Shown here piece by piece: positions 3,001 through 6,000 of a DNA stretch of 40,009 nt. Source of the stretch: an archaeon (GTDB lineage Archaea; Iainarchaeota; Iainarchaeia; Iainarchaeales; 1-14-0-10-31-34). The first letter of the stretch is position 1; every line of letters starts with the position of its first letter. A program made the position numbers. Location: NCBI GenBank assembly GCA_043815885.1, contig JBDRIL010000031.1, positions 1 through 40,009 on the forward strand. Direction: 5' to 3'.

Positions 3001-6000
3001 GTAACTGTTGCAGAACTTAAAAGGAAGTTGCCTTTTCAAGTTAATCATTACACTTTGAAAGTGATTCTTGAATATTTGGAGGAAAGCAATAAGATTGCGG
3101 TTAGTATGAAAGGCATTACTTGGATTCACAATACTAATCCAAATCTAAGGAAAGCTGTTTCTAGAGGACTTGAGTTATGAAGACTGTTAGAGTCATTCTT
3201 TCGCCTGAAGCAGAAGAAGTATACAAGCACTTAAACAAGGAAGCCGAGAACTCTAAAATTGAAAGAACCATTCTTAAAGCAATAAACAACAAACTGGGCT
3301 TAATTAAAGCAAACATTCATTATGGGCAACCAATATCGAAAAAGTTAATTCCAAAAGAATACAAGGAAAAATACGGAATAAATAATTTATTCAGGGTAGA
3401 ACTGCCAAATTACTGGCGAATGCTTTATTCCCTCACTGAAGGGGAAACAAAAATAGAAATAATTGCTTTTGTACTGGATTTTGTTGACCACACAGAATAT
3501 AATAAAAAATTCAGATACGGGAAAAAGTAAGTTATTGGCTCGCTCGGGCTCGCTTTAAAAATAATGACTAGTTTATAGTAGAAGGCCAATTATTGCTGTA
3601 GGAAGATTCATTGCAAAGGCTACTGTGATTATTCTTTTTGTTTGGATTTCCCTGAGAATTATTCTTAGCATTAATGATTCTGCAAGGAAAACAAATGCTT
3701 CTGTTAAGAGAAAACTCTGAAAAAACTGGTTGAATCCCAATGGAAGGACAAGCCAGACTATTGGAAGGGTTATTGAATTAATTAAGATTGAAGCAAAAAA
3801 CAATTTTTGTACGGGAGTTTCCTTGAAAAAGAATGAAACAAGAATAATTGTTTCAATTAAGCAGGTTAGAATTAAAGCTTGAATAAAGGCATAAGTCATT
3901 TTACATCTTTGGCTTTTTTGTTTGTTTGGTTTTCTTTACAAGAAAGTACAAAGTGAAGGCAATTATTACAACAAAAGCGATTACCAGGATTATTACAATA
4001 AATGGATTGAATATCACGACATCTGCTGGGCCTGGAACCAAATGATAACCCGCTTTTTCCGCTTTCATTGTGCCTTCTGATTCATTGAATTCGCTTACAT
4101 TAATTTTAATGTTTTTGTCTGGTTCTAATTGAATTGTGTTTGATGCAAGATATGTTATTCCTTTTACTTCAAGCACACTCTTTTCCAGTGATTGCTTTTC
4201 TTCAAGCCCGCTTAAATCGGAGTTTTTTATTGCATAAACTTTTATTGTCGTATCTAATTTATAGACACTGTTCTCCCTTGCACTAACTTTATTTAGAGTG
4301 TCCTCCCAAAGGTTTCCTGCATAATAGAAAGAATATTCAGGGAAGTCATCTTGATTAGAAAGGTCAAAGGAATATGAAGGCGACGGTCCAATGTCTGCTC
4401 TCACCAAAGCAAAAACAAACAAAGCAATTGTTATGGCAATCAAGGTTTTCTTCATAAGTAACTATTTTTAGGTTAAACTTATTTATATTGTTTTTCATTT
4501 AAGTAGGTTAGTGGCTTAAAATGAATCCAAGACAGAAAGATTTTGTCAGGAAAATTGCTTTAGAGAGAATGTACAGGCTGATGGAGTTAGCGGAAGAGAA
4601 TTTTAGGGAGAAGCCTGAAAGAAGCAGGGAATACATTCAGTTAATGAAAAAGATTAGTTCCAGGAATAATACTCCTGTTCCAAGAGAATTGAAGGAAGGC
4701 TTCTGCAAGAAATGCTGCAGTGTTTTGGAGAAGGGAGTGAATTGCAGTGTGAGAGTGAAGAAGGACTTTTTGCTGCTTAAGTGCAGGGAATGCGGGAAAG
4801 AGAAGAAATTGTTTTTAGAGAAAGAGAAATTGGTTATTGGATTGACTGGAGGAGTGGCTTCAGGGAAAAATGAGGTTGCAGGGATATTGAAGGAAAAGAA
4901 AGCAGAGATAATTGATGCAGACGAGATTGCAAAGAAAGTGGAAGAGAAAAGAAAGGTGAAAGGAAGGATTGTGGGGGAGTTTGGAAAAGGGATTTTGAGG
5001 GATGGAAGGATTGAGCATAAAAAATTGGGGGAAATTGTTTTTTCTGACAGAAGGAAGTTAATGAAGTTAAATGGAATTGTTCATCCTCCTGCATTAAAGG
5101 AAATAAGGAAGAAAGTGAGAAAGAGCAGGAAGAAGGTCGTGGTGATTAATGCTCCTTTGTTGCTGGAAGCAGGAATGAATGGAGAAGTGGATAAAGTGAT
5201 TGTTGTTTCCTGCAGCAGGGAAAAGCAGTTGGAGAGGCTGGAAAAGAGAGGTTTGAGCAAGGAAGAGGCATTGAATAGGATTAATGCGCAGATGCCTTTA
5301 AAGGAAAAGGAAAGCAAGGCTGATTTTGTTATAGAGAATAATAATGGTTTAAAGGAATTAAGGAAGAGAGTATTATTGGTGTGGGAGAAACTGAAGGGAA
5401 TAAAATGAAGATTGGGGTTTATGCCGGAACATTTGATCCGATTACTAATGGGCATATAGATGTGATAAATAGAGCGTTAAAGTTGTTTGATGAGGTTATT
5501 GTTGCTGTAGGGGAAAACCCGCAGAAAAAGCCATTGTTTTCGCAGGAAGAGAGAATTGAATTAATCAGGAATTCTTTGAATGGAATGAAGGGAGTAAAGG
5601 TGGAGGAATTTAATGGATTACTTGCAGAATATATGAAGAAAAAAGGATTGATGTTTTTGGTCAGGGGATTGAGGGCAATAAGTGATTTTGAGGGGGAATT
5701 CCAGCAGGCAATAATGAATAAGAAGTTAGGGGGAATTGAGACAGTTTTCTTTATGACCAGTACAAAGTATTTTTACCTGAATTCCACTACTGTAAAGGAA
5801 GTAGTGAAGTTGGGTGGAAGCATGGGGGAATTGGTTCCGGAAGAAGTGGAAAATGCATTGAAAAAGAAGTTTTTGCAATAACAAAAGCATTAAAAAGCTT
5901 TTTTTAGTCTAATATTTATTGAATTAGCCTGTTTTTTTAAGGGAGCACCGCAAGGTGACGATTCTCTTGAAACAGATTTTTTTTCTTTTAAAAAAACGGG

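Follow-up and report, generated by a model that had tools for sequence, protein, structure and literature searches.

Organization of the rpp21::coaE Locus

The window analyzed here is a 40,009-nucleotide stretch from the genome of an archaeon of the order Iainarchaeales (1.16 Mb, 91.7% complete). It contains the rpp21::coaE fusion gene (4521..5408, + strand, stop codon TGA at 5406-5408), which encodes a 295-aa protein whose AF2 model has a pLDDT of 86.2. Residues 16-92 match Pfam Rpr2 (PF04032; 54.7 bits, cut-off 29.3; 58.5 bits in a six-frame search), and residues 104-279 match CoaE (PF01121; 159 bits, cut-off 27). With NCBIfam, the protein scored 156.5 bits for dephospho-CoA kinase (TIGR00152, cut-off 65.55) and 58.8 bits for the RNP4 equivalog PRK03954, which is under the strict cut-off of 162.

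The Rpp21 (RNase P protein component 4) domain, residues 1-99 (4521..4817, + strand), comprises two N-terminal helices and a zinc ribbon with a first knuckle C62-K-K-C65 (4704..4715, + strand) and a second knuckle C88-R-E-C91 (4782..4793, + strand). The junction (4818..4832, + strand) consists of the linker E-K-E-K followed by L104 (codon TTG) and connects model strands E94-98 and E104-110. Sequence comparison places L104 at the position where stand-alone CoaE proteins begin (M-x-I-G-L-T-G-G). The bacterial-type dephospho-CoA kinase (CoaE) domain, residues 104-295 (4830..5405, + strand), was assigned with PF01121, TIGR00152, and Foldseek. Its Walker A loop, G107-L-T-G-G-V-A-S-G-K116-N117 (4839..4871, + strand), carries Asn in place of the usual Ser/Thr.

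Downstream, coaD (5405..5881, + strand) encodes a bacterial-type phosphopantetheine adenylyltransferase (PPAT; TIGR01510, 188 bits, cut-off 103.3), and its ATG overlaps the TGA of rpp21::coaE as ATGA, a 4-nt overlap. The gene upstream of rpp21::coaE lies on the opposite strand. Read from the sequence, a TATA-like box TTTATATT (4482..4489, + strand) about 35 nt 5' of the ATG is the likely archaeal promoter of rpp21::coaE, and several oligo-T tracts 3' of coaD (5895..5995, + strand) likely form the archaeal terminator of a two-gene unit, rpp21::coaE-coaD. A conserved archaeal cluster, colinear in relatives and identified with Pfam, then extends over 6020..8185 on the + strand: rps19e (6020-6445), a PDCD5-like dsDNA_bind gene (6458-6781), a small L39e-like ORF (6790-6945; no Pfam match, labeled from conservation and position), rpl31e (6997-7482), and eIF6 (7526-8185). 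The one RNA-library run (X3) gave a single 209-nt contig over 4898-5106, which lies inside the CoaE part, does not bridge the junction, and is not proof of transcription.

Rpr2 has one match over the cut-off in the host genome, and it is the one within the fusion. A second match of 12.6 bits contains 2 internal TGA stops and was discarded as noise. CoaE also has one match over the cut-off, making the fusion the sole dephospho-CoA kinase found. Neither DUF359, the archaeal dephospho-CoA kinase (DPCK), nor CoaB/DFP was found in this genome. Rpp29, Pop5, Rpp30, and the RNase P RNA are all present as separate genes. The survey's finding that prompted this analysis had described the 295-aa fusion as the only Rpr2 gene, with the other RNase P parts encoded apart and PPAT as the next gene; the present analysis agrees with it on each of these points.

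Distribution of the Fusion

The architecture recurs in relatives, as had been reported. Rpr2 scored over the cut-off in 8 of the 9 genomes of the fusion family, twice in one of them, and always in open frames of 290-319 aa. These frames were translated, and the CoaE part was found in each of them by tblastn, a check that the survey's finding had called for. Outside the family, Rpr2 frames were 65-258 aa long among the matches listed (about 150 of 178, in a 196-genome order). A protein search returned 7 proteins of 293-301 aa with both domains, at 100, 89, 52, 50, 45, 48, and 47% identity. The other 113 proteins listed were CoaE that lacked Rpr2 and measured 194-326 aa; their best identities were 43-51%, across about 57-69% of the fusion query. 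With residues 1-100 as the query, just 21 candidates were scored and 3 matches obtained, an uninformative result. Protein length was rejected as a flag for the fusion: P0142 (305 aa) is CoaE only, with an unassigned N-terminal extension, and groups with the 299-aa frame of G166.

There is virtually no chance that the fusion is an assembly or frameshift artefact joining two separate genes. Genomes from 4 genera, 8 in all, share the architecture with 39-61% identity, as do 11 protein clusters from several sources, and this conservation already refutes the idea. In addition, a 151-nt contig from another metagenome run spans 4685-4834. The fusion is real, confined to one family of 4 genera, and the sole Rpp21 copy there.

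CoaE itself was found in 95 of the 196 genomes of the order, close to the earlier count of 91 of 195, and most families have it as a free coaE-coaD pair. Our literature search found no paper that describes the Rpp21-CoaE fusion. Database records name the fusion proteins merely "dephospho-CoA kinase", so surveys would score Rpp21 as missing in the fusion family.

Rpp21 Half and RNase P

Residues 1-99 resemble archaeal Rpp21/RNP4 (P. horikoshii Ph1601p, 1X0T, 2ZAE; P. furiosus 2K3R/2KI7; M. jannaschii 6K0A chain G) in sequence and predicted fold. The sequence match to 1x0t/2zae had an E-value of 2.3e-12, and Foldseek aligned the AF2 model to 2zae_B with a TMt of 0.87 and an rmsd of 1.6 over 96 columns. 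Helices 3-27 and 32-48 and strands 75-98 are predicted to form an L-shaped fold. Shared features are the CxxC...CxxC zinc ribbon, a predicted Rpp29 interface on the N-terminal helices, and a gene position before rps19e. Unlike the solved or described Rpp21 proteins, which are stand-alone subunits of about 100-130 aa, the fusion lacks a free C-terminal tail and continues through a linker of about 5 aa into a 192-aa kinase domain. On the role of the Rpp21 C-terminus, nothing was found in PMC9371926.

Residues C62, C65, C88, C91, R16, Y38, K63, and R78 are invariant among 7 fusions (alignment A1), and the four cysteines and R16 are also invariant among 22 fused and free Rpp21 sequences of the order (alignment A3). 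In P. horikoshii Rpp21, R22, Y44, K69, R84, R86, and R105 have been reported to be important. The first five align to R16, Y38, K63, R78, and K80 of the fusion and are kept, while the equivalent of R105 falls beyond the aligned part. The divergence of Rpp21 relative to S19e and eIF6 was 1.07 and 0.90 for fused pairs, respectively, versus 1.15 and 0.86 for unfused pairs.

The predicted complex of the fusion with the host genome's own Rpp29 scored 0.82, versus 0.00 for the best control, and passed a mark that 116 of 157 solved complexes also reached, as did 2 of 215 mismatched pairs; because a similar complex has been solved (2ZAE, 2KI7), this pass may be memory and shows likeness only. The runs agreed in at least 98% of contacts, with a partner pLDDT of at least 82. 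Predicted contacts with Rpp29 were confined to residues 1-49, i.e., the two N-terminal helices.

A fusion-specific change in the RNase P RNA was considered and rejected. RNA lengths in the fusion family (271-383 nt) overlap those in other families (211-529 nt), and where the host RNA departs from the model, the differences fall in P3, around P15-17, and close to the 3' end, outside the Rpp21-bound part.

Could the Rpp21-like half have left RNase P and now serve a CoA enzyme as an appended zinc ribbon or RNA-binding module, with RNase P working without Rpp21? Some archaea have reduced RNase P variants, according to PMC13462272, and the RNP4 equivalog score falls short of its cut-off. However, the gene occupies the ancestral rpp21 site and is the only copy in the genome, its rate relative to S19e and eIF6 is unchanged, and the residues invariant in the order's free Rpp21 are retained. 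Rpp29, Pop5, Rpp30, and the RNase P RNA all accompany it, and the Rpp29 interface is predicted, with the reservation given above. We consider a departure from RNase P very improbable. By sequence and model, the Rpp21 half looks fully functional, which makes it likely that RNase P physically carries the CoaE domain. That the fusion is the only Rpp21 likewise makes its assembly into RNase P likely.

CoaE Half and the Route to CoA

Residues 104-295 resemble bacterial CoaE (2IF2, 1UF9, 4TTP, 1JJV, 1VHL), with a TMt of 0.80-0.87. Their identity to bacterial CoaE proteins is 43-51%, and the named ones among these include Bacillota and Omnitrophica. Foldseek gave a TMt of 0.80, 0.83, 0.82, and 0.87 for 2if2_A, 4ttp, 1uf9_A, and 8dv0, respectively. 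The domain shares with bacterial CoaE the invariant Asp, the P-loop Lys, and other family columns. The invariant Asp of CoaE has a catalytic role. Among 194 aligned CoaE, D134 is present in 194, H188 in 188, P189 in 190, E216 in 191, R239 in 193, and Q257 in 191; the fusions retain these residues, and that of the host genome has all of them as well as G115 and K116. Differences from bacterial CoaE are the RNase P subunit at the N-terminus, a Walker A motif ending in Asn, and the 4-nt overlap with coaD, seen at 0 of 15 bacterial loci. The CoaE half probably still phosphorylates the dephospho-CoA supplied by CoaD.

The Walker A residue after GK is S/T in 185 of the 194 aligned CoaE and N in 5. 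Asn at residue 117 is found in the host genome's fusion and in its 89% relative, both of which keep G115-K116. Among 18 length-flagged fused rows, one of which (P0142) is not an Rpr2 fusion, 16 have S/T. The rarity of GKN (only 5 of 194) counts against regarding the kinase as a passenger on RNase P.

A more basic kinase surface in the fusions was not borne out relative to free CoaE of the order: the fused CoaE domain has a median pI of 9.71 versus 10.01, some rows carrying a few extra flanking residues from cutting.

The fusion had also been proposed as the route by which this lineage replaced the archaeal GTP-dependent DPCK (DUF359, PF04019), which catalyzes the same metabolic step and is unrelated in sequence. 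DUF359 had no match in any of the 196 genomes of the order, with a control that gave matches in 4 archaea, and in most families CoaE occurs as the free coaE-coaD pair. Since DUF359 is lacking order-wide, the fusion does not explain the replacement.

One genus of the fusion family, represented by G008 (99% complete), keeps the fused CoaE. A coaD protein query found no PPAT in this genome, and its single PF01467 match is RibL/FAD-synthase-like. Retention of the kinase is thus not simply tied to coaD.

Synteny and Origin of the Fusion

Among other families, 11 of the 16 genomes sampled carry S19e-PDCD5-L39e-L31e-eIF6 downstream of rpp21, and no CoA gene lies at this site. The gap between rpp21 and rps19e varies in these families and holds pilin-like genes, glycosyltransferases, or YhbY. 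At another locus, coaE lies directly 5' of coaD in 17 of 20 sampled genomes; the remaining 3 loci comprise one CoaD-CoaE fusion and 2 without coaD nearby. In the fusion family, all 7 full loci show the order Rpp21-CoaE-(CoaD)-S19e-PDCD5-L39e-L31e-eIF6, with coaD in 6 of them. The exact placement of coaE-coaD between rpp21 and rps19e argues that the rpp21 locus captured the CoA cassette. The reverse, a zinc ribbon captured by a CoA operon, had been raised as a caveat within the survey's finding and runs against this synteny.

As controls, we used 15 named bacterial CoaE loci from a genome-contig search with the fusion protein, whose search patterns were too specific for fused relatives. None of the 15 had coaD within 3 kb of coaE. 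The pairing is thus a trait of the order, which argues for an internal move of the cassette.

The 12 fused CoaE domains in the CoaE tree form one clade (SH-aLRT 97), and the fusion is of single origin. A branch with an SH-aLRT of 98 sets this clade with the sampled bacteria unless the root falls among them. The tree fits one origin of CoaE in the order if rooted among bacteria, and the fused clade was not seen nested in the order's CoaE. Both an internal move and a second transfer would be compatible with the tree.

We infer the following course of events. Before the fusion, the order would already have been without the archaeal GTP-dependent DPCK and would have relied on a translationally coupled, bacterial-type coaE-coaD pair to convert salvaged 4'-phosphopantetheine to CoA in two steps. 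In the ancestor of the fusion family, with its 4 genera, the pair would have moved into the variable rpp21-rps19e gap, after which the rpp21 stop and the coaE start would have been lost. The outcome would be a fixed linker of about 5 aa that joins the last zinc-ribbon strand to the first CoaE strand. From the zinc ribbon CxxC to the P-loop, the distance is 15 aa in the host genome's fusion and 17 aa in 7 relatives, and the coaD start overlaps the fusion stop (ATGA or TTGA) in 6 of 7 coaD-bearing loci.

The junction also bears on whether one gene gives two products, a free CoaE being made alongside the full-length protein by internal initiation near codon 104, or the linker being cleaved. The working kinase or the working RNase P subunit would in that case be something other than the fusion. 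L104 is encoded by TTG exactly at the ancestral CoaE start, with a purine-rich GAGAAAGAGAAA just 5' of it, and GTG or TTG occurs in the linker at 4 of 8 loci. At the other 4 loci, the linker lacks any start-like codon, and the fusions have F, I, or L in this column. No stop or frameshift that would release Rpp21 alone was present in the 8 translated family loci or the 7 aligned database proteins. Two separate products are quite unlikely on this evidence, and a single bifunctional protein is the reading that we carry forward.

Relation between the Two Activities

Our preferred explanation, which we consider probable, is a bifunctional protein that arose by fusion of adjacent genes, so that RNase P carries the kinase as a passenger to which it is not mechanistically coupled. 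The N-terminal half would still pair with Rpp29 and sit in RNase P at the distal end of the S-domain, as described for the M. jannaschii holoenzyme. The C-terminal half, together with CoaD, would complete 4'-phosphopantetheine salvage. The two activities would be uncoupled, the kinase merely riding on RNase P.

Fusions of this kind are common here. CoaE is also joined to NUDIX, CoaD, VanZ, Fpg, and MGS, and known examples include the eukaryotic CoA synthase PPAT-DPCK (2F6R), MGS-CoaE of Halanaerobium, VanZ-CoaE, Fpg-CoaE, and the order's own NUDIX-CoaE and CoaD-CoaE. CoaE thus frequently fuses, often with a gene neighbor; the present case differs in that the partner is a subunit of a ribonucleoprotein enzyme unconnected to CoA metabolism. 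Rpp21, likewise, has an unrelated NUDIX as its fusion partner in G138, a genome from a different family. The supplement of PMC11237513 catalogues an S3-POP4 fusion in one Bathyarchaeota assembly. In S3-POP4 and NUDIX-Rpp21, as here, an RNase P protein gene in a ribosomal cluster has fused to its neighbor, but those are single-genome cases, whereas Rpp21-CoaE is fixed in a family of 4 genera. The triangle formed by Rpp21-CoaE, NUDIX-CoaE, and NUDIX-Rpp21 might have hinted at a common pathway, but this idea was rejected since its two NUDIX domains show no relationship (best BLASTP E 1.1).

With so short a linker, the 22-kDa kinase domain has to pack against the RNase P RNA-binding zinc ribbon, which speaks against the passenger reading. 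Functional coupling would mean that the kinase works in the context of RNase P, on an RNA 3'-hydroxyl or a dephospho-CoA cap, or that CoA, dephospho-CoA, or ATP tunes tRNA 5' maturation. The fusion has been kept in 4 genera with a CxxC-to-P-loop distance constant at 15-17 aa, G008 retains the CoaE domain without a detectable PPAT, and the lineage of the host genome has the unusual GKN. According to PMC6565675, Rpp30, Rpp29, and Rpp21 together present an uninterrupted basic surface that complements the tRNA. Against these points, the family-invariant CoaE columns are retained, the pI of fused CoaE is not above that of free CoaE, and coaD is coupled through the start-stop overlap. Moreover, the gap where the fusion lies is variable and, in other families, carries unrelated cargo; both CoaE and Rpp21 have fused to other, unrelated neighbors; and RNase P RNA lengths overlap between the fusion family and others. 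Coupling is therefore unlikely, though the fixed linker length through 4 genera could alternatively reflect selection for the fused state.

In its most specific form, the idea gives this RNase P a second, protein-borne catalytic site. A kinase a few residues from the zinc ribbon, on the S-domain side, would act on RNA in transit (the 3'-hydroxyl or a dephospho-CoA 5' cap) or would link tRNA 5' maturation to the CoA/ATP state of a cell that scavenges CoA precursors. We regard this as a long shot. If it were true, a non-CoA role would show in the genus with a fused kinase but coaD lost.

The survey's finding had read the fusion as an RNase P holoenzyme that carries a nucleotide kinase. The physical part of this reading is upheld as likely by the Rpp21 residues, the rate, and the predicted Rpp29 binding, but we found no evidence that the kinase links CoA synthesis to tRNA maturation. 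Nor did we find evidence for the suggested action of the kinase on RNA ends or dephospho-CoA-capped RNA; the CoaE columns are kept, the domain is not more basic, and the gene is coupled to coaD.

Returning to the kinase as a passenger, if the fusion assembles as expected, it would give, to our knowledge, the first natural archaeal RNase P with an enzyme domain. The distal S-domain end would then tolerate a 22-kDa load on a linker of about 5 aa, which would be useful for engineering and structural work. The locus also offers a dated, stepwise example, in a streamlined genome, of how a multidomain protein may arise from neighbors, passing from free cassette to insertion to fusion. Across the order, CoA is made through a bacterial-type two-gene salvage pair and the archaeal DPCK is lacking, and about half of its genomes have neither kinase, a distribution that bears on the host dependence of these archaea.

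Results and Discussion

The rpp21::coaE gene (window 4521..5408, + strand) is a single open frame encoding 295 aa. Pfam assigned residues 16-92 to Rpr2/Rpp21 (54.7 bits against a cut-off of 29.3) and residues 104-279 to CoaE (159 bits). With NCBIfam, the dephospho-CoA kinase equivalog TIGR00152 scored 156.5 bits and the RNP4 model 58.8 bits, under the strict cut-off of that model. The survey's numbers on this gene were reproduced. The AlphaFold model has a mean pLDDT of 86.2 with high confidence inside each domain; its pTM of 0.60 does not fix the placement of one domain relative to the other. 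In this model, the Rpp21 half forms two long helices (3-27 and 32-48) and a zinc ribbon that ends in strand 94-98, and the first CoaE strand spans 104-110, leaving a linker of about 5 residues (E-K-E-K-L). By Foldseek, residues 1-99 of the predicted fold match Pyrococcus horikoshii Rpp21 from its Rpp29 complex (2zae_B; TMt 0.87, rmsd 1.6), and the remainder matches solved dephospho-CoA kinases (TMt 0.80-0.87).

The window's genome (1.16 Mb, 62 contigs, 91.7% complete) carries no second Rpr2, the sole other match scoring 12.6 bits with two stops. Profile searches of this genome detected neither a second CoaE nor the archaeal dephospho-CoA kinase (DUF359). Rpp29, Pop5, Rpp30 and the RNase P RNA are encoded by their own, unfused genes.

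In the protein search, both domains occurred together in 7 proteins of 293-301 aa among the matches listed, alongside 113 CoaE proteins without Rpr2 (43-51% identity). Later searches added the fused clusters P0121, P0125, P0267 and P0268. Within the fused family (4 genera), 8 of 9 genomes had Rpr2 over the cut-off, each time in a frame of 290-319 aa; the ninth is 81% complete. The survey had left these frames untranslated; they were now translated, and tblastn places a CoaE part in every one. Two differing fusion copies in G005, on a 147 kb and a 3.7 kb contig (G005:C2 and G005:C36; loci L017 and L021), may reflect mixed strains in the bin instead of a duplication, with 3% contamination reported. 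Across the 196 genomes of the order, Rpr2 was found in 174 (E<=1e-3), and the frames outside the fused family were 65-258 aa among the matches listed. CoaE was found in 95 of the 196, across most families, nearly always in frames of 187-240 aa distant from rpp21. DUF359 was detected in 0/196 genomes by a profile search that did give its control signal in four archaea. The change to bacterial CoaE was therefore order-wide and predates the fusion. With CoaE taken at E<=1e-8, 101 of the 196 genomes have neither enzyme (for example, 0/38 with CoaE in family f14 and 0/7 in f2), so about half of the order lacks a recognisable last step of CoA synthesis.

Full-text literature searches returned no paper on Rpp21 together with dephospho-CoA kinase, nothing linking dephospho-CoA kinase to horizontal gene transfer in DPANN, nothing on Rpp21 with S19e, and unrelated work only for RNase P with CoaE. 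An archaeal fusion catalogue (PMC11237513) does not give the Rpp21-CoaE fusion in its text, nor in its supplements as far as these are searchable; the supplements do record an S3-POP4 fusion. Fused proteins are publicly labelled "dephospho-CoA kinase" only (P0004, P0005, P0125), leaving their RNase P subunit invisible in annotation.

To trace the origin of the fusion, 8 fused-family loci were compared with other families' loci (16 for rpp21, 20 for coaE), and the window's proteins were mapped on all of them. In 11/16 other-family loci, rpp21 is followed by S19e-PDCD5-L39e-L31e-eIF6 and no CoA gene. Directly after coaE stands coaD in 17/20 loci; of the other three, one is a CoaD-CoaE fusion and two lack a nearby coaD. 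All 7 full fused-family loci have the order Rpp21-CoaE-(CoaD)-S19e-PDCD5-L39e-L31e-eIF6, with coaD in 6. In the 15 named bacterial coaE loci, no coaD lies within 3 kb of coaE, so the pairing is a trait of the order. The content of the rpp21-rps19e gap varies in other families (a pair of pilin-like genes, a pair of glycosyltransferases, or YhbY). A small YhbY/CRM-domain gene (PF01985) lies between rpp21 and rps19e in G150 (L023:5243-5503, +) and between coaD and rps19e in G004 of the fused family (L018:4310-4558, -), and may have settled in this gap earlier. On the simplest reading, the order's coaE-coaD pair entered the gap in the fused family's ancestor and then joined rpp21. In the CoaE tree, all 12 fused domains fall into a single clade (SH-aLRT 97), which fits one fusion event. 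As to whether the family's coaE-coaD pair arose inside the order, the tree is not decisive. A branch with support 98 groups the fused clade with the bacteria sampled, unless these contain the root.

Traces of the joining may persist at the junction. L104 is encoded by TTG where free CoaE proteins start (M-x-I-G-L-T-G-G) and looks, from the sequence, like a relic of the former coaE start. A start-like codon is missing from the linker in half of the loci. The linker length is fixed: from CxxC to the P-loop, seven relatives have 17 aa and the window has 15 aa. Columns invariant or near-invariant among 194 CoaE sequences are kept in the fused CoaE with one exception: the window and its closest relative have Asn directly after the P-loop lysine, a position that is S/T in 185/194. 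This Walker A loop (window 4839-4871) thus reads GKN instead of GK[S/T], a form found in 5/194 sequences and common to the window's 89%-identical relative.

In the Rpp21 half, the four cysteines, R16, Y38, K63 and R78 are invariant among 7 fused proteins, and the cysteines and R16 also among 22 fused and free Rpp21 of the order. Relative to S19e and eIF6, fused pairs (1.07, 0.90) and free pairs (1.15, 0.86) of Rpp21 are equally divergent. A predicted complex of the fusion with the genome's own Rpp29 scored 0.82 (best control 0.00), a mark reached by 116/157 solved complexes and 2/215 mismatched pairs. Contacts agreed at least 98% between runs, partner pLDDT was at least 82, and the contacts are confined to fusion residues 1-49. 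Because 2ZAE and 2KI7 are solved structures, the prediction may be a memory of them and is taken as a likeness only.

We consider it probable that the fused protein performs two unrelated jobs, as a predicted RNase P subunit and in CoA making, with the kinase riding on RNase P. The N-terminal half would pair with Rpp29 and take its place in RNase P, the C-terminal half would make CoA, and the kinase would be carried along. For the Methanocaldococcus jannaschii holoenzyme, PMC6565675 places Rpp21 at the distal end, with Rpp29 on one side and L7Ae on the other, binding the S-domain T-loops and P12. That the kinase domain has a function tied to RNase P itself seems improbable to us. The short linker of fixed length and the GKN loop in the window's lineage would suit such a role, as would the G008 genus, which keeps the fused kinase though PPAT is not detectable (G008 is 99% complete). 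There, coaD is gone from the fusion locus (L020 = G008:C1:12000-22000; also L080), and the single PF01467 protein is RibL/FAD-synthase-like and adjoins a tRNA synthetase gene. Speaking against it, the order's free CoaE is at least as basic as the fused kinase domain, and a family-specific feature was looked for in the RNase P RNA and none was seen. Moreover, neighbour fusions are common for these genes in the order (NUDIX-CoaE, CoaD-CoaE and, in G138, NUDIX-Rpp21, the two NUDIX domains being mutually unrelated), and CoaE is fused elsewhere too (VanZ-, Fpg- and MGS-CoaE).

The G138 protein, from another family, is a 250-aa NUDIX-Rpr2 fusion (L098:982-1731, -; PF00293 53 bits, PF04032 34.8 bits) immediately upstream of S19e, and is a second, independent rpp21-neighbour fusion, in one genome only. 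NUDIX-CoaE is a 382-aa frame in G046 (L055:4819-5964, -). CoaD-CoaE is a 383-aa frame in G036 (L056:4810-5958, -), with G037 alike by frame length, and has the domain order of eukaryotic CoA synthase. The RNase P RNA of the window's genome (C14:17627-17933; L059:1501-1807, - on L059; 117 bits) has 27 nt at P3 versus 4 in the model, 6 nt only for a 39-position hairpin region that we take to be P15-17, and an A/U-rich 25-nt insert close to its 3' end.

The gene after the fusion is a bacterial-type PPAT (coaD; TIGR01510, 188 bits), whose ATG at 5405 shares bases with the fusion's TGA (ATGA); this start-stop overlap occurs in 6/7 loci. A TATA-like TTTATATT about 35 nt 5' of the fusion ATG and oligo-T tracts downstream of coaD, both read from the sequence, make the two genes look like their own transcription unit. 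As CoaD and CoaE are present and CoaB/DFP is absent from this genome, the pair appears to convert salvaged 4'-phosphopantetheine to CoA in two steps. Farther upstream, ORFs of 95 and 117 aa (window 2893-3180 and 3177-3530, both +) overlap by 4 nt, a layout like that of a toxin-antitoxin pair, which is a guess from layout; neither is over any Pfam cut-off, the 95-aa ORF reaching a sub-threshold 21.7 bits against 24.9 for Mis14. Divergent from and upstream of the fusion lie two hydrophobic ORFs of 108 and 184 aa with no Pfam match (window 3573-3899 and 3901-4455, both -), the former sharing 63% identity with an ORF in the same position in G008.
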